The notes beneath the pieces were generated by a model that saw only the letters and a list, made by a program, of their open reading frames with translations, was not told the origin of the DNA and did not search any database. Positions 5,063-15,943 of a stretch of DNA of 35,585 bases are shown here, in pieces; position 1 is the stretch's first letter, and every line of letters starts with the position of its first letter. The stretch covers positions 1 through 35,585 of the forward strand of contig JACQSP010000090.1 in assembly GCA_016205905.1 (NCBI GenBank), read 5' to 3'. Made by a program: the position numbers and the translations under genes. The DNA comes from Candidatus Woesearchaeota archaeon. Lineage in GTDB: Archaea > Nanobdellota > Nanobdellia > Woesearchaeales > DSVV01.

Positions 5063-5653
5063 TTATTTTTTCTTTGTTTTCTTTAAATTCTCAATTAACT
5101 TGTCAACTGCTTCATCAACTTCCTTGTCGCTCTTTGTTCCTGTGCATACTATTTTTCCGTTGCTGAACAACAAAAAGGTTGCTTTTGCCTGAGGCAGTTT
5201 GTAAACTAGCCCTGGAAATTGTTCTGGCTCGTATTCAGTATTTTCCAATTTCATTGCTAGAACATTCAAGTTTAGGTCCATGCCTACACTTCCGGAAGCA
5301 ACAATATTTTGGATATTAATCTTTGGCTTGATTTTGATTTTTATGTTAATCTTTTCCAAACTTTTGATAATCTTTTTAATGGATTCTTCTACTTTTTCCA
5401 TGCTTCTTGCGCCTGTGCAGACAACTTTGCCAGAGCTGAAGATCAAAGCAGAAGTTTTTGGCTCCCTTATTCTTATGACTAATCCAGGGAATTGTTCAGG
5501 ATTGTATTCTGTATTGCTTAATGTAGCAGCCATCTTTTCCAATGGTATATCATGCTCCAAAGATGTGCTGACAACAATGTTTACAACATGAATATCTCGT
5601 TTTTCTGGCTCTTGTTTAGGTAATTCTTTTTTTGCCAAATTAATCGCCCCCAT
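5063..5653 (-). CDS. tbp: TATA-box-binding protein
   Basis: 196 aa with two TBP repeats: YNPEQFPGLVIRIREPKTSALIFSSGKVVCTGA and YEPEQFPGLVYKLPQAKATFLLFSNGKIVCTGT. Short basic C-terminal tail KKTKKK. Confidence 0.97.
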   Translation of the reverse strand: MGAINLAKKELPKQEPEKRDIHVVNIVVSTSLEHDIPLEKMAATLSNTEYNPEQFPGLVIRIREPKTSALIFSSGKVVCTGARSMEKVEESIKKIIKSLEKINIKIKIKPKINIQNIVASGSVGMDLNLNVLAMKLENTEYEPEQFPGLVYKLPQAKATFLLFSNGKIVCTGTKSDKEVDEAVDKLIENLKKTKKK

Positions 5654-5703
5654 TAATATTTATTTTATCTATTGGTAGTGAGCAAGCAGTTATCTTGCTT
5701 TTA

Positions 5704-5723
5704 CCTTTATAAACCTTTATAAA
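5704..5723 (-). promoter_or_regulatory. Tandem duplicated TATA box upstream of tbp (candidate promoter)
   Basis: CCTTTATAAA occurs twice back to back on the + strand, which reads TTTATAAAGG x2 on the tbp strand. It lies 51-70 nt upstream of the tbp ATG. No TATA-like sequence sits at -27 relative to the ATG. Confidence 0.4.
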
Positions 5724-5755
5724 TAACTATCTCATATTTAAATACTGTGTTTTTT

Positions 5756-5848
5756 AAAGGTAGGAAAGTAAGAGGTTTGAGGTAAGAGGGAACAACTACG
5801 AGATTATCATCGTACCTCTTACCTCTAACCTCTTACATCTAACTCTTT
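5756..5848. repeat. Family-2 palindromic element
   Basis: Left arm AAAGGTAGGAAAGTAAGAGGTTTGAGGTAAGAGGG, core AACAACTACGAGATTATCATCGT, right arm ACCTCTTACCTCTAACCTCTTACATCT. Lies in the divergent tbp/thiI-like spacer. Confidence 0.75.
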
Positions 5849-5893
5849 AATAAACATTATTAATATCCACTATATAACACCCCTTGATTTCCG

Positions 5894-6991
5894 ATGGAAC
5901 TTACCTCAACTAATATGGATTTGTGTATAATAAGGTACGCAGAAATAGCATTGAAAGGCAAAAACAGGCAATTATTCGAGAAAAAGCTAGTTTACAATCT
6001 AAAAAACTGTTTAAAGTTAAATAAATTGCCTTTTGCTGAAATAAAGCGTTTTGAAGGCAGAATTTTTGTTTTTATAGATAAAAATAACGATTTAGATTTA
6101 AATAACCCTAAAAACCATGATTTAAACACAAATACCCAAAAAAAAGAGGGGTTAGAATCAAATCCTTACTCCTTACTAGCTAACGTGTTTGGCGTTTCTT
6201 CTATTAGTTTCCCTGTTGAAAGTACACTTACACTTGAACCTATCCAAACAGCGATAGACAACCTTATCAAGGAGAGAATTAAAGATAAAGTTAATGGCAA
6301 GAACTTTAACACATTTAGGATTACTACAAAGAAACTTGACCAAACTATTTCTAAATCGTCGCATGAATTCGATGTTGAGCTAGGCAGTTATGTTGAAACT
6401 ATATATAAAAAAAAGGTTTCTTTGAAAGAGTTTGATCTTAATATACAGGTTGAGCTAATTCATGGCAAAGCCTATGTATTTTTAGACAAAGTTAAAGGTG
6501 TTGGTGGTTTGCCATATGGTATTGAAGGCAGAACATTGGCTCTGGTAAAGAACAAGCAAGACCTTTTTGCTGCTTTATTAATGATGAAACGAGGGTGTGC
6601 AGTTGTTTGTTTAACTCTTCCTAGCCTCGAATCAACCTTGAGAACCACATTTCTTAATTACGGCGTTAAACCAAAAATTATAAATGTTAATGCCTTTGAC
6701 AATGAAAAGATAGATGAAATAAAATTTAAAGAAAATATAGAAGATATCACTAAACATCATAAAATAAAAGAATTTGATAAAATAACAATAACCGAAACTA
6801 CTAAATTTCATAAAACAGAAGAATTTGATAAAAGAACAATAGAAGAAATTGCTAAATTTCATCAAATTGAATCAATTGTCACTGGGCAAACATTAAATAA
6901 TTTCAAACCATTAACCAATCTGGTTGAGTTCAGGCCATTGATAGGGATGGATGAAGGAGAGATTAGGTGTAAGATTAAAGAAATGATATAA
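5894..6991 (+). CDS. ThiI-like protein (N-terminal ferredoxin-like + THUMP domains) with degenerate PP-loop domain
   Basis: N-terminus IIRYAEIALKGKNRQLFEKKL is typical of ThiI. GVGGLPYGIEGRTLAL is followed by VKNKQD where ThiI has SGGxDS. The C-terminal VTGQTLNN...FRPLIGMDEGEI resembles ThiI TGEsLGQVaSQT...RPLig.dK.EI but lacks SQT. Confidence 0.6.
   Translation: MELTSTNMDLCIIRYAEIALKGKNRQLFEKKLVYNLKNCLKLNKLPFAEIKRFEGRIFVFIDKNNDLDLNNPKNHDLNTNTQKKEGLESNPYSLLANVFGVSSISFPVESTLTLEPIQTAIDNLIKERIKDKVNGKNFNTFRITTKKLDQTISKSSHEFDVELGSYVETIYKKKVSLKEFDLNIQVELIHGKAYVFLDKVKGVGGLPYGIEGRTLALVKNKQDLFAALLMMKRGCAVVCLTLPSLESTLRTTFLNYGVKPKIINVNAFDNEKIDEIKFKENIEDITKHHKIKEFDKITITETTKFHKTEEFDKRTIEEIAKFHQIESIVTGQTLNNFKPLTNLVEFRPLIGMDEGEIRCKIKEMI
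6746..6871 (+). repeat. In-frame 51-bp (17-aa) tandem repeat, about 2.5 copies, inside the ThiI-like CDS
   Basis: ITKHHKIKEFDKITITE / TTKFHKTEEFDKRTIEE / IAKFHQIE (aa 285-326). Confidence 0.8.
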
Positions 6992-7375
6992 AGTGAATAA
7001 ATTGTTTTATTAATATACCAATTCTTAATTGTTTATTCATAAATCTGAAGTATAATCTGTTATAATTTATTTATTGAATTATGAATTATTATTAATGAAT
7101 CAGTATAGTTAATGTTTATTTATTGCTCACTACTCGTTTGTTGGTTGTGGTAGGCTGTTGGTCGTGGACATCATCCCACAATTATTAACGTCGTCCGTTA
7201 TACGACAAACGACATACGACAAACTCGTTTCTGACCACTGAAACCTGACATTAATATGTCCACTGGTTTAAAAGCTCTAAACTCCTCAGCAGTTAGCTCA
7301 ATAGGGCTTTTAATAGATGTCCACTGGACAAGTCGGCGTAAGGTTTATATAGATAGCTGGTTTTACAGTCAACTT

Positions 7376-7768
7376 ATGAAAACTGACAATATTCATAATG
7401 CGTTGGTTGTATTTGAAGGTAAACAGATTAGGCGAGTCTGGGTTGATAACCAATGGTTCTTCTCTGTAATTGATATAATCAGAGTATTAACAGAAAGTGT
7501 TGATGCTAAAGATTATTGGTATAGGCTAAAGCAGAGAGAACAAGAAACAAGTGATGTTCAACTATCGACAATTTGTCGACAGTTGAAACTCCTTGCAGAA
7601 GATGGCAAACTTAGAGAAACTGATTGTGCCAATACAAAAAATATGTTTAGAATAATTCAATCAGTTCCTTCCCCAAAAGCAGAACCGTTTACTATTCAAA
7701 AATTCCGAGACACTGTCGCAGAAATTGTCTTGAAGCCACTACTGCCTTTTGCTGAGGAGAGACAATGA
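7376..7768 (+). pseudogene. Truncated Bro-N domain protein (homology ends about 7690)
   Basis: MKTDNIHNALVVFEGKQIRRVWVDNQWFFSVIDIIRVLTES...DYWYRLKQRE...LSTICRQLKL...FRIIQSVPSPKAEPF matches the N-terminal half of the common ~270-aa Bro-N family. The expected KLWLAKVGYERIEE continuation is absent. The 40 codons upstream of M41 (7256-7375) look non-coding. Confidence 0.6.
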
Positions 7769-7889
7769 CTTTGCACGCCAGTTTTATCTTGTTGAAACTG
7801 AAAAAGAATTTTGGAGTGTAATGGAACTCGACAGGCAAATAAGTTCAATGCTGTATGAAAGGCTTGCCTTAAGCAGTGAAAAAAACAAA
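7752..7889 (+). pseudogene. Fragment of a DUF1016/YhcG-type protein (N-terminal domain only)
   Basis: LRRDNDFARQFYLVETEKEFWSVMELDRQISSMLYERLALSSEKNK fits the YhcG N-terminal pattern (FY..E.....WSvReLeRQI.S.LfERLaLSkdK). No PD-(D/E)xK nuclease part follows, and the frame runs into a repeat arm. Confidence 0.5.
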
Positions 7890-7969
7890 TTAAACAATCA
7901 TAGTGAACGAATGGCTTCGCCAAGGAACGAAAAACAAACAAAAAGAACAGATAATAATAATTCACGACC

Positions 7970-8533
7970 ATGCAAGACATAGTATTCCCCAAACACAACG
8001 AGAAAGAGTTCATTGAAATAGCTGAGAAACTAAGCTATGATGAGCTGTGCTTCTTATACCCTATCGAAGAATTCTTACCCAAACCTAAACAATCTTTTGA
8101 AACAAACATAAAAGTTAGTTATGGCATTTTCTGCTCTTCTTCACAAATACAAAAAGCGAAACAATTGGCTAAATTTGTCGTCGTTAAAGCTGATGAGAAC
8201 CAAAGAAGAATTATTGAATCCTCACCATCAATAATAATTGATTTAGAATCCATTTCTGCCAGAGATTCATTTCATTACAGAAACTCTGGCCTGAACCAAG
8301 TTTTGTGCGGGTTAGCAGCAAAGAATAATGTCAGCATAGGGTTTAATTTTAATTCTGTTCTTAATGCTTCACAGCATGACAGAAACATTATTTTGGGGAG
8401 AATGAAACAGAATATCAACCTCTGCCAAAAATATAAAGTTAGAATGGGGTTTGGGAGTTTTGCGAGGACACCTTACGAGATGAGGAATTATAACGATATA
8501 ATTGGGTTGTTTAGGACGATTGGGCTGCGATGA
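7970..8533 (+). CDS. rnp3: RNase P protein component 3 (Rpp30/Rnp3)
   Basis: 187 aa. The C-terminal ...NVSIGFNFNSVL...RNIILGRMKQNINLCQKYKVRMGFGSFARTPYEMRNYNDIIGLFRTIGL fits the Rpp30 TIM-barrel C-terminal pattern. Confidence 0.7.
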   Translation: MQDIVFPKHNEKEFIEIAEKLSYDELCFLYPIEEFLPKPKQSFETNIKVSYGIFCSSSQIQKAKQLAKFVVVKADENQRRIIESSPSIIIDLESISARDSFHYRNSGLNQVLCGLAAKNNVSIGFNFNSVLNASQHDRNIILGRMKQNINLCQKYKVRMGFGSFARTPYEMRNYNDIIGLFRTIGLR

Positions 8534-8537
8534 TAAT
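8408..8537 (+). repeat. Direct repeat copy A: last 41 codons + stop + 4 nt of rnp3 (att-like)
   Basis: Aligns without indels to 10384-10513 (offset 1976 bp), with about 18 mismatches in 130 by hand count. Confidence 0.85.
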
Positions 8538-8740
8538 ATACTAAAAGTGCAAAATAATATATCGTTATACTAACACATTTCACACATTACACCCATTATA
8601 GCTTCTTCGTTATCAATAGTTTCAAATATGCATTTTGGACGCATTTCAAGCCGCAACACCCACATTATACTAACACATTTATGCTAAGTTTTTCAAATTA
8701 TAACTCTTTATCTCTAACTAAACCGCAACATTTATATAGT

Positions 8741-8788
8741 TGAACATATTTATACTAGTATGAACATATATAAATCAAGGTGAACATA
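8741..8788 (+). promoter_or_regulatory. Three TGAACATA iterons at exact 20-bp spacing over the promoter, SD and start of the AbiEi-like gene
   Basis: TGAACATA at 8741-8748, 8761-8768 and 8781-8788. TATA-like TTTATATAG at 8731-8739. SD AAGGTGA at 8777-8783. Confidence 0.5.
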
Positions 8789-9412
8789 ATGCTTATTACA
8801 AATGGAATGCAAAATATTATTCGTGTTTTGCTTAATTATAAAAACAAGGGTTTTACAACAAGGGAATTAGCTAAAGAAGCGAATGTATCTGTGGGGTTGA
8901 CTGTAAAACTTCTTAGTTCTTTAGCTGCAACAGGCTACATTGTTAAAAAACCAAAGATTAAACTAACCTCATTTAAACTGCTTAATGCGTGGGCTTATAC
9001 AACAAGCATAAAAGAAATAAGCCAGTTATCTTTTAGCGCTGCTGAACGACCAGAATATTTATTTAAAAAAATATCGCTTATTGCAGCGCAAAATAATCTC
9101 AACTATGCATTTACATTATACAGCGCAACAGAATTCGTTAGCCCTTTTGTAGTTCCTAACACCCTAGATTTTTATATTTTAAACAGTGATAAAGAGAAAT
9201 GGGAAACCAGTTTAGTCAAACACAATATTTTTCCAGCAGAAAAAGGGAATATAACTGTTTATCTTGTGGATAAAGATTATTTTTATAATCTTCTTGAGAT
9301 AAATGGCAACAAAATCATATCTTTGCCTCAGTTATATGTTGATTTGTTTTCATTAGGTGGCAGGGGTGAGGAAGCAGCGCAACAGCTTCTTAAGGCAATG
9401 GACAAAGTTTAG
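8789..9412 (+). CDS. AbiEi-like wHTH antitoxin/transcriptional regulator (putative)
   Basis: N-terminal wHTH FTTRELAKEANVSVGLTVKLLSSLAATGYIVKK. C-terminal ISLPQLYVDLFSLGGRGEEAAQQLL resembles the AbiEi C-domain. ATG at 8789 is preferred over the track's GTG at 8780 because the SD AAGGTGA lies 5 nt upstream. Confidence 0.5.
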   Translation: MLITNGMQNIIRVLLNYKNKGFTTRELAKEANVSVGLTVKLLSSLAATGYIVKKPKIKLTSFKLLNAWAYTTSIKEISQLSFSAAERPEYLFKKISLIAAQNNLNYAFTLYSATEFVSPFVVPNTLDFYILNSDKEKWETSLVKHNIFPAEKGNITVYLVDKDYFYNLLEINGNKIISLPQLYVDLFSLGGRGEEAAQQLLKAMDKV

Positions 9413-9500
9413 ACTTTTCATTTCCTGAATAAAACTATGACCCGCCTACAAAAGAAATGCAAAAGTTCAAAAAGTATGGTGTTCATAAAATAGAAAGAAT

Positions 9501-9632
9501 GTATTTGTTTAGCATCTTCAAAATTCCGTATGAAGTTTCGCAGAGGTGACATCCCTGTATGGGGCAAGTCCCCCTGTCACCTTTGCAATTAGGCTCAAAA
9601 TAAATTTTGGCCTTATGATGCTAAACAAATAC
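9501..9632. mobile_element. MITE (132 bp) with family-1 termini, perfect 16-bp TIRs and an 8-bp TSD
   Basis: GTATTTGTTTAGCATC (9501-9516) is the exact reverse complement of GATGCTAAACAAATAC (9617-9632). Flanked by GAAAGAAT at 9493-9500 and 9633-9640. Internal GC-rich hairpin GCAGAGGTGACA/TGTCACCTTTGC. Confidence 0.85.
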
Positions 9633-9669
9633 GAAAGAATATAATTTATTATAATTATGGTGATAAAAC

Positions 9670-10380
9670 ATGTATGATACTCATGAAACAGAAACATCAA
9701 AGAAGTATATGTATGAATTACTAAAACATTCATCTTCAATTAACATAGCTTTGATTGGTGGTTGGGCAGCATACATTTATGTCAATTCTAATTATAGAAA
9801 AGCATTTGGTGTGGATTATTTGATGTCAAGAGATATAGATGTCTTTATTGATGTTAAGCATGAAAAGAGGTTTGCTGACCTCATAAAAAACTTAGGATTT
9901 CAAAAAAGCGCATATCCTTTTAGGTATGAAATCATTTATGATAAAGCATCAAACAAGATAATTACGCAAGAGCAAGCTAAGAAGCACCACATCTTTAATT
10001 TGTTCTACATCTTTTTAGATTTATTCAGCAATAAACCCACAAAACTGCTTGGAACTTGGTGTATAGATTCTTTAAATAGCTCTAAACGAATATTTATAGA
10101 TAATATTCCTGTTTTAGATATAAATTCTCTTATTTTATTAAAGGCAACATCTTTTTTTGAAAGAGAGAAGTTAGACAAAGAATTAAAAGATGCGTGTGAT
10201 TTATACGCGCTTGTATTTTATTCAGAACAAAACCCACAATTAACTGAATTGCTTAAACATGCTTTAGACAAGATATTAAACAGACAAGACTTGTGCGAGT
10301 TTATCTCAGAGCAAGTGTTAAGGGATTCATTAAAGGCAGGCATTGTAAAACGAACGATTAGTAATTACTTGAGTAAATAA
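9670..10380 (+). CDS. AbiEii/DUF1814-like nucleotidyltransferase toxin (putative)
   Basis: LIGGWAAYIY...MSRDIDVFID fits the GG.A...R.(S/T).DID NTase motif. The downstream LILLKATSFFEREKLDKELKDACDLYAL fits K..A...R....KD..DL. SD GGTGA lies 6 nt upstream. Confidence 0.5.
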   Translation: MYDTHETETSKKYMYELLKHSSSINIALIGGWAAYIYVNSNYRKAFGVDYLMSRDIDVFIDVKHEKRFADLIKNLGFQKSAYPFRYEIIYDKASNKIITQEQAKKHHIFNLFYIFLDLFSNKPTKLLGTWCIDSLNSSKRIFIDNIPVLDINSLILLKATSFFEREKLDKELKDACDLYALVFYSEQNPQLTELLKHALDKILNRQDLCEFISEQVLRDSLKAGIVKRTISNYLSK

Positions 10381-10383
10381 TTT

Positions 10384-10513
10384 CAGAACGTCAACCTCTG
10401 CCAAAAATACAAAGTTAGAATAGTTATTGGAAGTTTTGCAAGAGCACCATATGAGATGGGGAATTATAATGATATTATTGGGTTGTTTAGGACGATTGGG
10501 TTGAGATGATAAT
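10384..10513 (+). pseudogene. Direct repeat copy B: orphan 3' fragment of rnp3 (41 codons + stop, no start)
   Basis: Encodes QNVNLCQKYKVRIVIGSFARAPYEMGNYNDIIGLFRTIGLR*, versus QNINLCQKYKVRMGFGSFARTPYEMRNYNDIIGLFRTIGLR* in the intact gene. Begins 3 nt after the NTase stop codon. Confidence 0.85.
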
Positions 10514-10543: not shown

Positions 10544-11200
10544 TTAATCAATCTCTCCCTCATTCAATTCGCTACTTGTGCAACTAGCGCCAAAATCATT
10601 TTTTATTTTAGCAGTATCACCTTCATCTGATAATGTTCCTGCGTACACACCATTACAGGTTGTAGTTACCTGTGGACTCCACCAATTAAAACTACCATCT
10701 TTTGCCCCACAATATAAAACAACACCATCTTTACTTTCTTTATCGCTATCATAACATAAACCATATATCTTTAGTTTTGGAACTGTTTGTGTGTCAATAT
10801 TATGAGTGAAAGAAAGCGTTATTTTATTTTGGTCTTTTTTCAATATTACTTTATTTATTGGCTTGAAATAGCTAACCTTATCCTCAACTAAAATATCAGG
10901 AGTTGCGCTTGGCGCACTAAAAATATTACTATCACTGTAATAATAATTAGATTCTATCTTTTCCTCTTCCCCATACTTTAATTTACATTTTGTACTGTCA
11001 GTTATCTCTGTCACAGTCGCTGTTACTTTTTTTTCGAATCCACTAAAAAAACCTTTTTCTGTTGAATAATATCCATCTAAACCACTCACTTTCCATGAGC
11101 AGCTCGTAGTCATTGCATCGTCTTCACTATCTGCGCTGCTAATTACAGTCAGTACTAATAAAAAGATTAAAATAAATAATACGAGTATTACCTTTCTCAT
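10544..11200 (-). CDS. Exported Cys-containing protein, unknown function
   Basis: 218 aa. N-terminal signal MRKVILVLFILIFLLVLTVISSA followed by an acidic stretch. Abuts the upstream ORF (11201), suggesting an operon. Confidence 0.6.
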   Translation of the reverse strand: MRKVILVLFILIFLLVLTVISSADSEDDAMTTSCSWKVSGLDGYYSTEKGFFSGFEKKVTATVTEITDSTKCKLKYGEEEKIESNYYYSDSNIFSAPSATPDILVEDKVSYFKPINKVILKKDQNKITLSFTHNIDTQTVPKLKIYGLCYDSDKESKDGVVLYCGAKDGSFNWWSPQVTTTCNGVYAGTLSDEGDTAKIKNDFGASCTSSELNEGEID

Positions 11201-11590
11201 CTAAACCTCTTCCTCTCCAGTTTCTTTAACTTCTTCAACTGCTTTTTCATCTGTTTCAACTGGTTTTATCAATCCATGCTCATACGCGCAGTTATACACC
11301 TTTACCCATGTCGGCATATTTTTGCATTTCTCTTTTATCATCTCGTCATAATAACCATACTTAAAAAGTAATCCGCCAACAATTAATATTACTATTAATG
11401 TAATAGCTACTCCTACCCATACTTTAGGAGAAGGATGTTTATGCTGAGGATATTCTTCTGCATCAACATCTTTTAATGCGTTATTTACTTCATCCTCTGG
11501 CCATTTTGCTTTAAGAAGCGTTTCTTTTATCTCTTTCTTGGAAAAGCCTTTACTTAGCTCTTTTTTGATATATTCTTCTATATTTGTCAT
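11201..11590 (-). CDS. Single-pass membrane protein, unknown function
   Basis: 129 aa. About 45-aa charged helical N-terminus (EYIKKELSKGFSKKEIKETLLKAKWPEDEV), TM segment VWVGVAITLIVILIVGGLLF and an acidic C-terminus. Confidence 0.6.
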   Translation of the reverse strand: MTNIEEYIKKELSKGFSKKEIKETLLKAKWPEDEVNNALKDVDAEEYPQHKHPSPKVWVGVAITLIVILIVGGLLFKYGYYDEMIKEKCKNMPTWVKVYNCAYEHGLIKPVETDEKAVEEVKETGEEEV

Positions 11591-11688
11591 TAATTATATT
11601 TTTGCAAGAATGAGTTTTAATATTTTACTGTTTATAACATCAATATTTCAATATAATTTATCAATAAATGCTTTAAGAAGTCTTTTGT

Positions 11689-12024
11689 CTATTTGCACAC
11701 ATAATTTACTTTCTGGTCAGTTCCTTCAATGTTCTGATAATGAAATATACCTTTTATTTTCTGCTCTTGAATAATATCCTTTATTTTCACAGTCGAAGAA
11801 TTAATTATTTTGAGGTTTGCCTTATTTATTGTATCTAGTGTAACAATACAGTTTGTAAACGTCCCATTATTTGCAATCGTGAACCAAATCTCATCATTAG
11901 AATATTCTGATTTAAAGAATTCAATGTTTTTCGGAAGATAAACTGCTTTGCCAGTTATTAAGTTACTACAGCCTGTCAAAAATATTAATATCAACACTAT
12001 GATGGAAAATTTAATAATCTTCAT
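11689..12024 (-). CDS. Small lipoprotein-like exported protein
   Basis: 111 aa. MKIIKFSIIVLILIFLTGCSN is lipobox-like (LTGC). TATA-like AACTATATATAG lies about 25 nt upstream. Confidence 0.55.
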   Translation of the reverse strand: MKIIKFSIIVLILIFLTGCSNLITGKAVYLPKNIEFFKSEYSNDEIWFTIANNGTFTNCIVTLDTINKANLKIINSSTVKIKDIIQEQKIKGIFHYQNIEGTDQKVNYVCK

Positions 12025-12196
12025 ACTTCAAGTTAATCATTTTAACTATATATAGTTTGTGTTAAAATTTGCGAAAAATCGTGGGTAAATCAGAAACTTT
12101 TATATATGTATTAAATGGGAATAGTTATTAATAGATATAATACTAAATGTATTACTTTTATATCACTTAATAAAAATCAACAAAAAGAGGAAAATT

Positions 12197-15100
12197 ATGA
12201 TAAAAAAGAGAAGATTAATTTTTTTATTTTTGGCAGTACTATTATTAATAATATTAATAATCGTTAGCTCATCAGTTTTAGGGCTTCTTATTCCTCAATC
12301 AGGCAAACAAGTAGGTGATTTAAGCGTAATTGAATCTTACAAAGGCACATCACGATTGTTTTTAGAACTGTTTGTGGGTTGTTTGAGAGAGCAAGATGGA
12401 AATTATATTGGTGCGATACCACACTATAATTCAAGTTTGTTGTTAGACCAAAAAATAAATTTTCCAGATGAGAAGATATATCCAACACCTAAATTTAATA
12501 CGCCGTGGGGAACAGATGATGATAATGATGGTTTCTTAGAAGAAATAATTGGTAATGGTATTGAAGAGATTCCTAAATTAGAAGTTCCATGGCAGCAAGC
12601 ACCTAAATCATATTTGTATGAAGGCAATTGTTACTTGTTTGCTAATTATTGGCATCAATTCTGGAACAAAGGAGAAGAAGTGACACAAAACGATGAAGCA
12701 TTTAGTGTGTTAAAAGAAGATGAATTATATAATGATGATGGAGACAAAACAAAAATAAATGCTGTCGCTCAAATTGACGAATCCAAAGGTTTAGAAGCTC
12801 CGTTTAAAGGAGCGTATTATGTTAGTAGTGATGATTATTCTTATAACGTTTATTGGGAAGGCACTCAAGACAGTGAAAAAACTTGCGAAAATTATGGTGG
12901 ATACTATAAAGATGTAGGCGGCAATAAAGTCAAGAATTGTTGCGGCGACGATTATCTTTGGATAATGAACAGCGTCTATAATTTTGATGGTGATAAAGAA
13001 GGTAAGTCTGTAGATGAGCTTTGCTTGTATGGTTATGTTGACCCAGACACAGGCGAGCCATTAGTAGAATCTTCAGAATCACAAATATACCATACATCTG
13101 CAAAAGTAGGAAATCATCCTTACAGAAACCAAATCTATTGCACTCCTTTGGCAGCAGTTGGTGAAGTATCAGATATACATTACTCTTATGATATTAACAA
13201 TTATGATCCACAAAGCACAACAGAACAGAGAAGATTATTTGTTTATAATAAAGATTCACCAACAACAACAGCAACAGATGTGGGATTGTGGAAAACAGAT
13301 ACTTCTGCTAATTATTGTACACATTATTTTTCAGATAAAACAAATGGTGAAGTAAAAAAAGGAGATAACTTTGAATGGTTAACACCAGAAAAAGCAGGTG
13401 AGATAAATTATTTTGGCGTTGGTAATGGTGGTGCAACAGCTTTTGATAAAGACAACAAACCATCTATTATAAATAAAAAATTCATATTAAATCCTAAAGC
13501 CCCAGACTACATTTACGACGTCATGACCAAACAATTATCTGGTGATAATTACACAGATTCAGATGATTTCACTATTTGTAATTTGTTCTTAGGTGGCACA
13601 TGGACAGGTCATCATTGTTGTGGAAATAAGTATAAAGATGGAACAAAACTTCTTGAAAATTTTAATGATGAAGGAACAGCAAGCAGTATTGATACTGAAA
13701 AAGGAGAGCATTATGTTTTAACCAAGAATAGATTAAAAGCATACAGCCTAAGCGCAGAAATAGAAAGCGGTGAAGTATGGAAAGAGCCAAATAAAGCATG
13801 CTACCAAGGAGAAGCGATGGAAAGTGGCGAGATAAGGAATACCCCTAATAAGTTATCTATTATTAACAAAAAGGGTGAACTTAACTTGTGTTATAATATT
13901 GACGGTCAAATTGACGGTTTACAAGCCATAACTGGTAAAAGTTATGACTTTGAACAATTCAAAGAGAGTGATAATAATTATTTGTTTAATAATGATCCTC
14001 TTACAAAAGATAATGTGATTAGCTCTTGCGGCTCTTTCTATCTCAAAGCCGGCGATGATTTAGTTAGCACAAACAACCGTTTCGCCTACTGCTTCACAAA
14101 CAATACTTGGCTAAGTTTTGATATTATGCCAGAGGATTATGCAGAAGGTACAAACCCTGAGTTTGATATATTGGGAAGATATCCTGCAGAAGGCGATGTA
14201 TTGCACGAATCAGGCATTAATGATGATTTTAAACTTATTAAAAATATGAAAGTTAAATCTGACAAAGGCTGCTGTTTCCAAGGAGATTGTTGGAACGGAA
14301 ATAGTTGTACAGCTAACGGCGCTACAGTTATTGACAAATATGTTGATCCAAAAAAAGTTTATCTCTGCGCAAACGGAGAATGGACATCTGGCGAAGCATC
14401 ATTTAACTGGTACGACGAGAAATTTGCAGGCGAAACTGATCCTTCTCAAACAGGATTAGCATATTGTGTGGATAAATGGTCATGTGCCTGTCCTGAAAAA
14501 GATGCTTATAACTTAGGCGATGAAGATCAGCATGAGATAGACATTTGCGAAACTTATACACAACCTAATTCTCAGTGTACACGAGAGCCTGCGATGTTTA
14601 TCGGCGACAGATTCTGCGAGCCAGAATTTGTGAAAAAAGATGGCGATGGTTATGACTTTAAAGATGCTTCAACAATAACCTCATCACAATGGACATCCCG
14701 AACAACCTATCTCGCAACAGCATTGTTAACCCTCGCGCAACAAAAGAGTTCAAATGAATTTACTTTACAATGCGACACCCCAAAAAGTGTTCTTAACTTT
14801 TACAACCTTGACTTTGCAAAGGATTTGTTTGTGACAGAGCAGGATTATAATAATTTCTGTGCCCTAAAACTTAAAAATAGTGATGGTGATGAGGAGATTT
14901 ATTTAGGCACAACATTAAACCCGCAATTAAAATATGATGAAATACCCGAAGAATTATACCAAACCAAAGAAATCTCTGAGTTTGAGCAATGTACAGACGA
15001 CACTAATTGTATTCAATGCACAGAAGATGACACTAATTGCATTGGTTATGGCTGCTACAAAAAACCAGCTGCCAATGTTGGACAATGTGTTAAACAATGT

Positions 15101-15943
15101 TATGATGATAGTGATTGTGATGAAGGTGAAGAATGTTTTACAGCTGAAGAAGTGCCAGAAGGAGAGATTAAAATAGGTCTTTGCGCTCCAACCTCTGCAA
15201 AAGATGTAGACATGTTTAATATTGAAAATTTAGGAGAATTGTTTTACGGAACATCTGATACAACAGGATTATTAAACAATGAATTCTTGTTTAAATTAAC
15301 CAGCAAGAAATTTGCTGAAGATGAATGTAAAACTATTCTTGAAGGAACTAACCCGCAAAACGGAAATGGTGATGATTTCTTACTCTTTAAAACCTGTGAT
15401 AATGATAATATTGCTTTTAATAATTTTACAAAAGCAATGATATTTAGTAACAATTCGCAAGATGAGAACTTTTTGACTTTAACATACGACGAAGTGACTA
15501 ATAATAATTTAATTAATAATGTTAAGGATATAAAAGATTATTATAAATATGAGGATAACAAAGACAAAATCGCAGAGAAAAAGGAGATGGATATTATTAA
15601 CTCTATATCTGATTTAGATAAAATTTACTATGCACGAAAAGAAGATGGTGATAAAACAATTTTTGGTGTTCTTGAAAGAAAATCTGACCCTGATGCATCA
15701 GGCGATCCCTCTTCAAAGTTAAGATATTTCGCTGTTATTATGTACAAAAACATATTTACAGACAACAAGGTATGCACCGAGCTTGAAAAGACCTCGCCTC
15801 TGCTTTATTGCGGATACAAAGATTATGGCAATGGTGCAACAACGGTTGTAATTATCATTCCATCAACACCAGACTACGACGGCACAGAAGATGCAGTCAT
15901 GAATTATTGGCCAGACTTGACTGCGAAGATTAGATTGAAATAA
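12197..15943 (+). CDS. Giant Cys-rich exported/surface protein 1 (1248 aa)
   Basis: Uninterrupted 1248-codon ORF. Signal-anchor MIKKRRLIFLFLAVLLLIILIIV. Recurring CC motifs NCCGDDYLW, HHCCGNKY and KGCCFQGDCWNG. Cys-dense block QCTDDTNCIQCTEDDTNCIGYGC...QCYDDSDCDEGEEC. SD-like AGAGGA lies 5 nt upstream. Confidence 0.8.
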   Translation: MIKKRRLIFLFLAVLLLIILIIVSSSVLGLLIPQSGKQVGDLSVIESYKGTSRLFLELFVGCLREQDGNYIGAIPHYNSSLLLDQKINFPDEKIYPTPKFNTPWGTDDDNDGFLEEIIGNGIEEIPKLEVPWQQAPKSYLYEGNCYLFANYWHQFWNKGEEVTQNDEAFSVLKEDELYNDDGDKTKINAVAQIDESKGLEAPFKGAYYVSSDDYSYNVYWEGTQDSEKTCENYGGYYKDVGGNKVKNCCGDDYLWIMNSVYNFDGDKEGKSVDELCLYGYVDPDTGEPLVESSESQIYHTSAKVGNHPYRNQIYCTPLAAVGEVSDIHYSYDINNYDPQSTTEQRRLFVYNKDSPTTTATDVGLWKTDTSANYCTHYFSDKTNGEVKKGDNFEWLTPEKAGEINYFGVGNGGATAFDKDNKPSIINKKFILNPKAPDYIYDVMTKQLSGDNYTDSDDFTICNLFLGGTWTGHHCCGNKYKDGTKLLENFNDEGTASSIDTEKGEHYVLTKNRLKAYSLSAEIESGEVWKEPNKACYQGEAMESGEIRNTPNKLSIINKKGELNLCYNIDGQIDGLQAITGKSYDFEQFKESDNNYLFNNDPLTKDNVISSCGSFYLKAGDDLVSTNNRFAYCFTNNTWLSFDIMPEDYAEGTNPEFDILGRYPAEGDVLHESGINDDFKLIKNMKVKSDKGCCFQGDCWNGNSCTANGATVIDKYVDPKKVYLCANGEWTSGEASFNWYDEKFAGETDPSQTGLAYCVDKWSCACPEKDAYNLGDEDQHEIDICETYTQPNSQCTREPAMFIGDRFCEPEFVKKDGDGYDFKDASTITSSQWTSRTTYLATALLTLAQQKSSNEFTLQCDTPKSVLNFYNLDFAKDLFVTEQDYNNFCALKLKNSDGDEEIYLGTTLNPQLKYDEIPEELYQTKEISEFEQCTDDTNCIQCTEDDTNCIGYGCYKKPAANVGQCVKQCYDDSDCDEGEECFTAEEVPEGEIKIGLCAPTSAKDVDMFNIENLGELFYGTSDTTGLLNNEFLFKLTSKKFAEDECKTILEGTNPQNGNGDDFLLFKTCDNDNIAFNNFTKAMIFSNNSQDENFLTLTYDEVTNNNLINNVKDIKDYYKYEDNKDKIAEKKEMDIINSISDLDKIYYARKEDGDKTIFGVLERKSDPDASGDPSSKLRYFAVIMYKNIFTDNKVCTELEKTSPLLYCGYKDYGNGATTVVIIIPSTPDYDGTEDAVMNYWPDLTAKIRLK

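Follow-up and report, generated by a model that had tools for sequence, protein, structure and literature searches.

A probable integrase-less AbiE-like cassette in the 3′-end of the RNase P subunit gene rnp3 of a Woesearchaeota archaeon

Analysis of a 35,585 bp stretch (contig JACQSP010000090.1, referred to as the window) of a metagenome-derived Candidatus Woesearchaeota genome revealed that the 3′-end of rnp3, which encodes the RNase P protein subunit Rpp30, is present twice, on either side of a gene pair of AbiEi/AbiEii type. The intervening DNA (8538 bp–10383 bp) is probably a small integrated cassette without an integrase, which would have entered the rnp3 end by a Campbell-type event and was later hit by a miniature inverted-repeat transposable element (MITE). 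A repeat search showed the two copies, designated A and B (Table 1), to be the sole direct-repeat family near the cassette, with 130 nucleotides aligning without gaps at 86% identity and a spacing of 1976 bp. Homology between them broke off sharply at both edges and the blastn E-value of approximately 2e-35 excludes chance. A first-pass annotation, made from the sequence alone, had described an indel-free 130 bp duplication with about 18 mismatches and only two genes between the copies; the exact count was 18, the coordinates agreed, and the two genes are accompanied by a 251-nucleotide leader, the 132-nucleotide MITE (9501 bp–9632 bp) and nothing more. Reading of the sequence bore out two further statements, that both copies keep an open rnp3 frame with the same ending (NYNDIIGLFRTIGLR followed by the stop codon) and that the TAA of the AbiEii-like open reading frame (ORF) (10378 bp–10380 bp) lies 3 nucleotides ahead of copy B.

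Base-by-base comparison in the rnp3 frame placed the 18 mismatches in 17 codons and revealed 11 synonymous and 6 non-synonymous changes (pN/pS 0.13, pS 0.48). Under neutral substitution the probability of 11 or more synonymous changes among 18 is at most 0.001. This bias indicates that both copies diverged as working gene ends in different genomes, and not as an in-situ duplicate in decay. The arrangement is also independent of any one assembly. Logan assemblies from four sequencing runs matched the window at 100% identity, with three contigs (L001–L003) spanning 7402 bp–9529 bp, three (L004–L006) spanning 9500 bp–12060 bp and breaks only at the MITE. Both junctions (rnp3 to cassette on the left, cassette to copy B and the downstream gene on the right) therefore have independent support.

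The nearest relative of the window's rnp3 (P0002, 83% amino acid identity) was found on L008, a contig of a sister lineage, where ThiI and rnp3 are followed at once by a homologue of the gene at 10544 bp–11200 bp of the window. L008 thus supplies the empty site that the first-pass annotation had suggested looking for in related genomes. A DNA-pattern scan of metagenomes of the Joint Genome Institute (JGI) revealed two further loci, L093 and L094, with four rnp3-end copies each (c1 to c4), all on one strand. In L094 the order is ThiI, rnp3 ending in c1, an AAA_14-DUF4143 ATPase gene on the minus strand (ATPase1), c2, AbiEi and AbiEii, c3, a second DUF4143 ATPase gene on the minus strand (ATPase2), c4 and the native downstream gene. 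The whole array is identical in L093 and L094, which come from two JGI samples. Alignment of L008 with L094 showed 0 mismatches over 1085 nucleotides in the c1 register and 0 mismatches between 1014 bp and 1384 bp of L008 in the c4 register; common to both stretches is a 72-nucleotide block equivalent to 8381 bp–8452 bp of the window. As c4 is identical to the L008 empty-site allele while c1 departs from it after the position equivalent to 8452 bp, the distal copy is the native one in L094 and the gene-attached copy was imported. L008 and L094 are near-isogenic empty and occupied alleles.

Metagenome ERZ28564412 contained both the empty L008 and the occupied L092, which is part of the array. 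The presence of near-isogenic empty and occupied alleles in one metagenome indicates that the process is recent and traceable in existing reads. The copies c1 and c3, each left of a DUF4143 cassette, share the 3′ signature AGATTTGAATG, and in c3 the stop codon becomes RKI-stop; such sharing is predicted by sequential Campbell insertion, in which the copy left of a cassette carries the end type of that cassette. The values of pN/pS within the array (0.13 for c2 and c4, 0.20 for c3 and c4, 0.16 for c1 and c2) resembled that of copies A and B, and carried ends with values of 0.13–0.2 are kept functional by selection. In the sister lineage, then, insertion duplicated the gene end and left the imported end on the gene, cassettes without a recombinase of their own were stacked, and the polymorphism is recent.

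The cassette together with its rnp3 fragment recurs as a unit, at 84% identity in L010 and 89–91% identity in L092 and L094, and the window and L094 keep the same junction of the AbiEii stop codon with the rnp3 fragment, as L010 does approximately. Within the window, copy B carries the substitution R172G at an arginine that is invariant in 29 Rpp30 sequences, a loss to be expected of a displaced relic. Copy A would be the end supplied by the incoming cassette, by analogy with c1 of L094. Between 8453 bp and 8530 bp copy A was nearest to c2, which lies left of the AbiE pair in L094 (9 mismatches in 78 positions; 11 with copy B, 14 with c4); this fits the model and is not significant. Coordinates of the features discussed here and below are collected in Table 1.

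Table 1. Features of the window and bracketing repeats or cassettes at other loci (positions in bp; those of L-numbered loci refer to the locus named)
Feature	Position	Strand	Remarks
rnp3 (RNase P protein subunit Rpp30), target gene	7970–8533	+	PF01876 at 52.2 bits, cut-off 35; last 126 nucleotides lie within copy A
Copy A, gene-attached rnp3 end, attL-like	8408–8537	+	Repeat search and base comparison
Cassette leader	8538–8788	+	Two copies of TATACTAACACATTT (8566–8580, 8666–8680); conserved putative AbiEi promoter/operator region from 8698
AbiEi-like antitoxin/regulator gene (putative)	8789–9412	+	PF09952 (AbiEi_2) at 29.2 bits, cut-off 21; 207 amino acids from ATG at 8789
MITE (9501–9632) and surroundings	9493–9640		Perfect 16-nucleotide terminal inverted repeats; 8 bp target-site duplication GAAAGAAT; splits the AbiEi–AbiEii operon
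AbiEii-like nucleotidyltransferase gene (putative toxin)	9670–10380	+	PF08843 at 21.7 bits, cut-off 22.5
Copy B, displaced rnp3 end, attR-like	10384–10513	+	Contiguous with native downstream DNA; alignments with L008 and L094 extend beyond copy B into the next gene
Native convergent downstream gene (predicted secreted protein, 218 amino acids)	10544–11200	-	Right chromosomal flank; homologue directly after rnp3 in L008 and after c4 in L094
L097 repeat-bracketed AbiE locus	5250–8821		Repeat of 80 nucleotides, 90% identity
L099 repeat-bracketed AbiE locus	7104–9063		Repeat of 81 nucleotides, 78% identity, which is the 5′-end of a neighbouring gene
L102 repeat-bracketed gene sets	829–1653, 7184–10057		Three copies of about 99 nucleotides bracket AbiE pair and a second two-gene cassette
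L039 cassette	5590–7838		ParE pair and DUF4143 ATPase
L089 cassette	12796–15557		AbiEii-like gene and MNT/HEPN pairs
L085 cassette	10554–12339		Secreted-protein gene; repeat starts at the rnp3 stop codon

The mechanism that we propose is one reciprocal crossover, by which the rnp3 3′-end would have recombined with a diverged version of itself carried by incoming circular DNA, in a zone corresponding approximately to 8381 bp–8452 bp of the window. The exchange is evident in the alleles of the sister lineage and would have taken place likewise in the window; its single reciprocal nature and the circular intermediate are both inferred. The carried copy would become the working end of rnp3 (copy A), and the native end would be pushed downstream as a relic (copy B). 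Since none of the cassettes encodes a recombinase, the crossover would have been made in trans. We see roughly an even chance that the agent was host homologous recombination acting on excised or circularised cassettes. Our leaning towards it rests on the length of the shared segments (130–200 nucleotides), on the left limits of the rnp3 fragments, which differ by cassette type (equivalent to approximately 8340 bp, 8381 bp and 8408 bp of the window), on the coincidence of the exchange zone with the longest block of perfect identity, and on the use of unrelated bracketing repeats by other Woesearchaeota cassettes (AbiE, ParE, HEPN-MNT and DUF4143). Once inserted, the cassette probably owes its persistence to the toxin-antitoxin pair, in keeping with what is known of such pairs on islands.

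A site-specific recombinase acting in trans is our second choice of agent, a strong rival although less favoured. The cassettes would then be non-autonomous elements resembling satellites or cis-mobilizable elements (CIMEs), the rnp3 end would form part of their attP, and their integration and excision would depend on a tyrosine or serine recombinase encoded elsewhere in the genome or on a helper element. It would account for at least three to four unrelated cassettes sharing one gene end, each starting within 4–10 nucleotides of the rnp3 stop codon, and for the junction of the AbiEii stop codon with the fragment being kept in three lineages that have diverged by 9–16%. Tandem accretion and integrase-less elements that retain att sites are well documented (PMC5704250), and archaeal elements that target the 3′-distal parts of protein genes and form arrays have been described (PMC6563490). 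However, domain scans of ORFs detected no recombinase in the 35.6-kb window, in 14 kb of L094 or in any cassette, in line with the absence of an integrase noted in the first-pass annotation. The shared segments are also long in comparison with crenarchaeal att sites of 29–69 bp (PMC6563490), the 5′ limits of the fragments vary among cassette types, and the quite different brackets of other DPANN cassettes would need many specificities in very small genomes. The earlier proposal of site-specific integration with a replacement 3′-end holds for the replacement end, which L008 and L094 demonstrate; its site-specific part is possible, a homologous single crossover leaving the same footprint and being favoured by several facts.

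Decay of a larger provirus, plasmid or integrative element that carried an integrase, until the toxin-antitoxin pair and two att sites were left, is unlikely in our judgement. The gene ahead of the AbiE pair in L010 is that of an archaeal ATPase and not rnp3, so that the insert there is larger, the distant AbiE pair of L102 adjoins genes resembling a type IV secretion system, and toxin-antitoxin pairs are the likeliest genes to outlast decay; a motif of the leader (8538 bp–8697 bp) in common with the region upstream of ATPase1 in L094 would also fit a deleted neighbour. Against this, every one- or two-gene unit of L094 has its own rnp3 fragment, which argues that the units recombine and not a large element; the DUF4143 cassettes survived although they hold no toxin-antitoxin pair, an integrase is missing from several further cassettes as well, and nothing related was found in IMG/VR. 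Scans of IMG/VR with the rnp3 profile, AbiEii and the DNA pattern yielded no virus or plasmid carrier, so the circular or plasmid-borne element that the first-pass annotation had suggested looking for was not recovered there. Neither viral contigs nor 80 GTDB loci contained an integrase-bearing relative that could be the parent of a CIME; the window keeps attL- and attR-like ends without integration or transfer genes. We give still less credence to mobility encoded by the cassettes themselves, whereby AAA_14-DUF4143 proteins would cut empty rnp3 ends and the array would be copied in by homing-like repair with AbiE riding along. DUF4143 has been classed in the PD-(D/E)XK nuclease superfamily (PMC3424549), accounts for two of the three L094 cassettes, follows rnp3 in L009 and is found in the repeat-bracketed L039 cassette, but the window has no DUF4143 gene, the L099 and L102 cassettes have none either, and homing alone makes no target duplications, cleavage itself being predicted from the family. 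Finally, nothing beyond the bare presence of the repeat favours an assembly artefact or a tandem duplication of the rnp3 end in situ that had no connection with the cassette, and both can be called already refuted: the divergence of A and B is biased towards synonymous sites, an empty site exists, and the junctions are reproduced in assemblies of four runs and the array in two JGI samples. The duplicated rnp3 end without a cassette, which the first-pass annotation had named as the observation that would count against insertion, was found in none of 80 other Woesearchaeota loci.

Several points weigh against the proposed mechanism, or against parts of it. In the window's own lineage every contig carries the cassette and the 90% protein cluster of rnp3 is a single sequence; exact-protein look-ups with rnp3, AbiEii and the downstream gene returned only contigs that bear the cassette, and neither an empty-site allele nor a circular form of this lineage was found among the contigs. 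The assignment of copy B as the native end is made by analogy with the sister lineage, and trees of the 110–130-nucleotide rnp3 fragments were noisy and conflicting (L092_B shares sites with each of L008, W_B and L009) and were not relied on. The longest uninterrupted identity between A and B is 24 nucleotides, which makes the pair a poor substrate for homologous recombination today. Homologous recombination alone also leaves unexplained how unrelated cassettes first came to start just past the rnp3 stop codon, 4 nucleotides for AbiE and approximately 10 nucleotides for the ATPase cassettes, and a recombinase could be encoded elsewhere in these genomes. As for the cargo, membership of AbiEii is borderline by Pfam, and a toxin-antitoxin function is predicted from the family.

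In the clade of the window the rnp3 end is a reused landing site, taken by AbiE, by two AAA_14-DUF4143 ATPases and by an archaeal ATPase, and cassettes can pile up there in tandem with an rnp3 fragment each. The order in L010 is the archaeal ATPase gene, AbiEi and AbiEii, an rnp3 fragment split by a MITE-like element and the downstream genes of the window, while in L009 rnp3 is followed by a DUF4143 cassette. L009 was considered as a second empty site and rejected, as the gene that comes after rnp3 there belongs to a DUF4143 ATPase cassette with homology to ATPase2 of L094. From these contents it follows that the site carries different cassette sets in different lineages. Among 80 species-representative GTDB Woesearchaeota rnp3 loci, none had a second rnp3 fragment or a nearby AbiE pair, so the hotspot is specific to the clade of the window and rnp3 is not a general one; L085 has a 68-nucleotide duplication that starts at the rnp3 stop codon. 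A second, distant AbiEi/AbiEii-like pair was seen in L010 (3693 bp–5051 bp, minus strand), 1.6 kb past the first and beyond two native downstream genes.

Bracketing by repeats was also seen away from rnp3. Three distant AbiE loci (L097, L099 and L102; toxin identity 47–55%) are bracketed by diverged direct repeats and have no integrase. The second cassette of L102 consists of a 142-amino-acid protein with a weak CYTH match and an MNT-type nucleotidyltransferase, and the same locus has the 3′-end of a glycosyltransferase gene duplicated around a methyltransferase gene. A control scan of the 80 loci (1.19 Mb) for repeat pairs of 60–400 nucleotides with 65–97% identity and 0.5–8 kb apart returned 16 direct pairs against at most 2 inverted ones. 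Some of the direct pairs were paralogues or intergenic repeat elements, and three bracket small gene sets (L039, L089 and L085). Over L039, L089, L085, L102, L097 and L099 the bracketing repeats measured 68–140 nucleotides, with 68–93% identity and no integrase. L095 (P0155), with an AbiEii fragment fused to a transposase-like tail, had a coverage of 0.77, may be chimeric and was not used. We put forward, tentatively, that DPANN archaea (Woesearchaeota) might have a general integrase-free means by which small cassettes with defence, toxin-antitoxin or ATPase genes, each bearing a 70–200-nucleotide host-gene "address", are captured and exchanged. Such a cassette would enter by one crossover, put its own functional copy in place of the gene end and be able to stack with others in an array. 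If so, this route would play an integron-like role, driven by host recombination or by another enzyme, for which the DUF4143 ATPase-nuclease is a possible candidate, and the rnp3 end would be one of its hotspots.

An integron or attC reading was rejected for the array. The DNA folding z-scores of six rnp3-end copies ranged from -1.24 to +1.14 and those of the bracketing repeats elsewhere from -0.96 to +1.39; without a single-strand fold the rnp3-end copies are not attC-like. Rfam gave no matches, and no intI with an adjacent attI was found, the rnp3 neighbours being ThiI, TBP, MCM and secreted proteins. A tRNA target was likewise not seen, with no tRNA in the window or at the other bracketing repeats and no Rfam family there. 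Integron arrays and clusters of attC sites lacking integrases (CALINs), archaeal ones included, are built of small cassettes with one or two genes, in many cases a toxin-antitoxin pair, and have repeats of about 60–140 nucleotides between them; arrays with no integrase next to them are common (PMC9668308). Unlike these, the separators at rnp3 are coding copies of a gene end without a fold, there is no intI or attI, and cassette orientation is mixed. TATA-like and operator-like sequences upstream suggest that the rnp3 cassettes carry their own promoters.

The closest parallel is the e14/phage 21 site in icd of Escherichia coli, where icdC is a displaced C-terminal pseudogene, the ends differ mostly synonymously and excision re-joins the gene (PMC13626634). 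As in that case, a core or essential protein gene houses the element in its 3′-end and continues into it, with the displaced end at the far side; e14 is a 15-kb prophage with its own integrase, whereas the inserts described here measure 1.4–2 kb, hold one or two genes and no integrase, stack in tandem and occupy rnp3 of a DPANN host. In thaumarchaeal integrated elements, 14 of 68 use the 3′-distal part of a protein gene, the new stop codon can be supplied by the element and tandem re-use of a site is known (PMC6563490). They resemble the present case in being archaeal, in targeting the 3′ part of protein genes and in that empty and occupied sites were compared (PMC6563490), but they are proviruses, casposons and integrative-conjugative elements with an integrase or casposase and short att sites or target-site duplications, in place of the 130–200-nucleotide segments of 80–94% identity without a recombinase seen here. 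The first-pass annotation had set rnp3, as a protein gene, against the tRNA genes for which the mechanism is well known; the use of protein-gene 3′-ends as such was already on record from e14 and the thaumarchaeal elements. Streptococcal CIMEs keep attL and attR, have lost their integration genes and, through successive insertions at a gene-end att, form tandem arrays (PMC5704250). A CIME is the decay product of an integrative and conjugative or integrative and mobilizable element and is moved in cis by a related integrase, but neither a parent element nor an integrase was seen for the rnp3 cassettes. Gene capture at Sulfolobus tRNA genes was reportedly described by She et al. in 2001, with successive integrations said to leave target-gene fragments that delimit the captured DNA; there the target is a tRNA gene and an SSV-type integrase gene is split on integration, whereas at rnp3 the target is a protein gene and no integrase remnant is present.

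Integration at the 3′-ends of protein genes, archaeal tandem arrays, and integrase-less CIMEs and accretion were thus known already. New are the rnp3 target, for which a literature search found no paper naming Rpp30 as an integration site, the DPANN host, integrase-less cassettes of one or two genes, each with a long gene end that is functional, the stacking of these cassettes, and indications that similar insertions are common in Woesearchaeota. The genomes of DPANN archaea are tiny and contain few CRISPR or restriction systems. The rnp3 locus offers a concrete, testable route by which they may gain compact defence genes, of which AbiE and others have been reported to be enriched in DPANN (PMC12988326). 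Insertion is harmless because each cassette comes with a copy of the essential gene's end, and the locus shows that part of the gene for an essential RNase P subunit can be foreign in origin. If no integrase is needed, many island finders that rely on integrases would miss this gene flow.

Profile searches identified the genes involved (Table 1). The first-pass identification of the target as Rpp30 was upheld by PF01876, which most of 80 rnp3 homologues also match; the NCBIfam models for RNase P component 3 match rnp3 below their cut-offs. Of the AbiE assignments made in the first-pass annotation, that of the antitoxin was confirmed by AbiEi_2 and that of the toxin came out as borderline by profile, with a Pol-beta fold. 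PF09952 is recorded for almost all of 46 AbiEi homologues, while the N-terminal HTH_11 match of AbiEi (17.9 bits) lies under the cut-off of 25; an alternative GTG start at 8780 bp would give 210 amino acids. Ten of 30 homologues of the AbiEii-like protein match PF08843 (best E-value 8.8e-08), the others matching NTP_transf_5 or Aminoglyc_resit, and the PADLOC match to AbiEii was weak. An AlphaFold model built on the family alignment had a predicted confidence (pLDDT) of 93.8, and its best Foldseek matches were LnuA, ANT(2″)-Ia and poly(A) polymerases, that is, generic Pol-beta nucleotidyltransferases only. The GG...DID and KDxCDxY motifs are invariant across the family. On the model, the product of 9670 bp–10380 bp is a predicted Pol-beta-fold nucleotidyltransferase at the edge of the AbiEii family. 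PDB sequence searches with AbiEi and AbiEii returned nothing. With an antitoxin inside the AbiEi family and a toxin at the edge of AbiEii, "AbiE-like" is a fair name for the pair. Its order, a winged helix-turn-helix AbiEi_2 protein followed by a Pol-beta-fold nucleotidyltransferase, is that of AbiE type IV toxin-antitoxin and abortive infection systems; unlike in those, the toxin falls just under the Pfam cut-off and the genes are 257 nucleotides apart, and the system is known here from its sequence.

The 257-nucleotide spacer, which is explained by the MITE and other inserted DNA, means that the two genes do not form a tight operon in the window; those of L010 overlap by 8 nucleotides. The MITE has no coding capacity and a DNA folding z-score of -8.4, and its empty site is preserved in L011 and L094, which read ATAGAAACAATATAATTT. 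Its termini, TATTTGTTTAG and CTAAACAAATA, are common to a family of palindromic intergenic repeats of about 200 nucleotides found in the window (4813 bp–5017 bp, 27752 bp–27956 bp, approximately 170 bp–374 bp and 7899 bp–7945 bp) and also in L008 and L010. Upstream of AbiEi, homology of the leader begins at 8698 bp for the L094/L092 cassette and at 8720 bp for that of L010. The heptamer GAACATA occurs three times with an exact period of 20 nucleotides (8742 bp, 8762 bp and 8782 bp; span 8742 bp–8791 bp), upstream of and overlapping the AbiEi start, and is kept in L010 and L094; it is probably the AbiEi operator/promoter. The 15-nucleotide motif TATACTRACACATTT, present twice in the leader (Table 1), was also found twice upstream of ATPase1 in L094 (9591 bp–9605 bp and 9625 bp–9639 bp). 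Among approximately 100 loci it is confined to the leader of the window and the region upstream of ATPase1 in L093 and L094, and it may represent either a cis site that the cassettes share or what is left of a deleted ATPase cassette.

A readthrough fusion of AbiEii with copy B was considered, as the two are in frame in the window behind a single TAA, and was rejected because relatives do not keep the arrangement: L094 has a frame shift at this point and L010 a MITE. In L094 (11102 bp–11845 bp) AbiEii has no stop codon of its own and runs 11 codons into the rnp3 fragment c3, which is not conserved either and is probably meaningless. L011 is identical to 10921 bp–11827 bp of L094; its last 38 nucleotides (908 bp–945 bp) diverge exactly where c3 starts, match nothing else compared and represent an alternative junction in the exchange zone or an assembly end. 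The 29 differences that separate L093 from L094 over 8.2 kb all lie in short, hypervariable patches (L094 13695 bp–13738 bp, 13946 bp–13961 bp and 14197 bp–14201 bp) of the secreted-protein gene downstream of the array, the homologue of 10544 bp–11200 bp of the window, with the remainder identical.

A second insertion was found in the window between ThiI and rnp3 (7002 bp–7886 bp). Neither L008 nor L094 has this insertion, which took the place of the left half of a palindromic intergenic repeat and contains a truncated Bro-N gene (7256 bp–7768 bp; PADLOC candidate PDC-S13, E-value 3.9e-43) and a DUF1016_N fragment (7749 bp–7982 bp). Additionally, the MCM helicase gene (1273 bp–4743 bp, minus strand) contains an intein with a LAGLIDADG homing-endonuclease domain, and three huge ORFs (12197 bp–15943 bp, 16185 bp–18482 bp and 18898 bp–25818 bp; 1248, 765 and 2306 amino acids), with no Pfam family or faint Ig-like matches, probably encode surface proteins.

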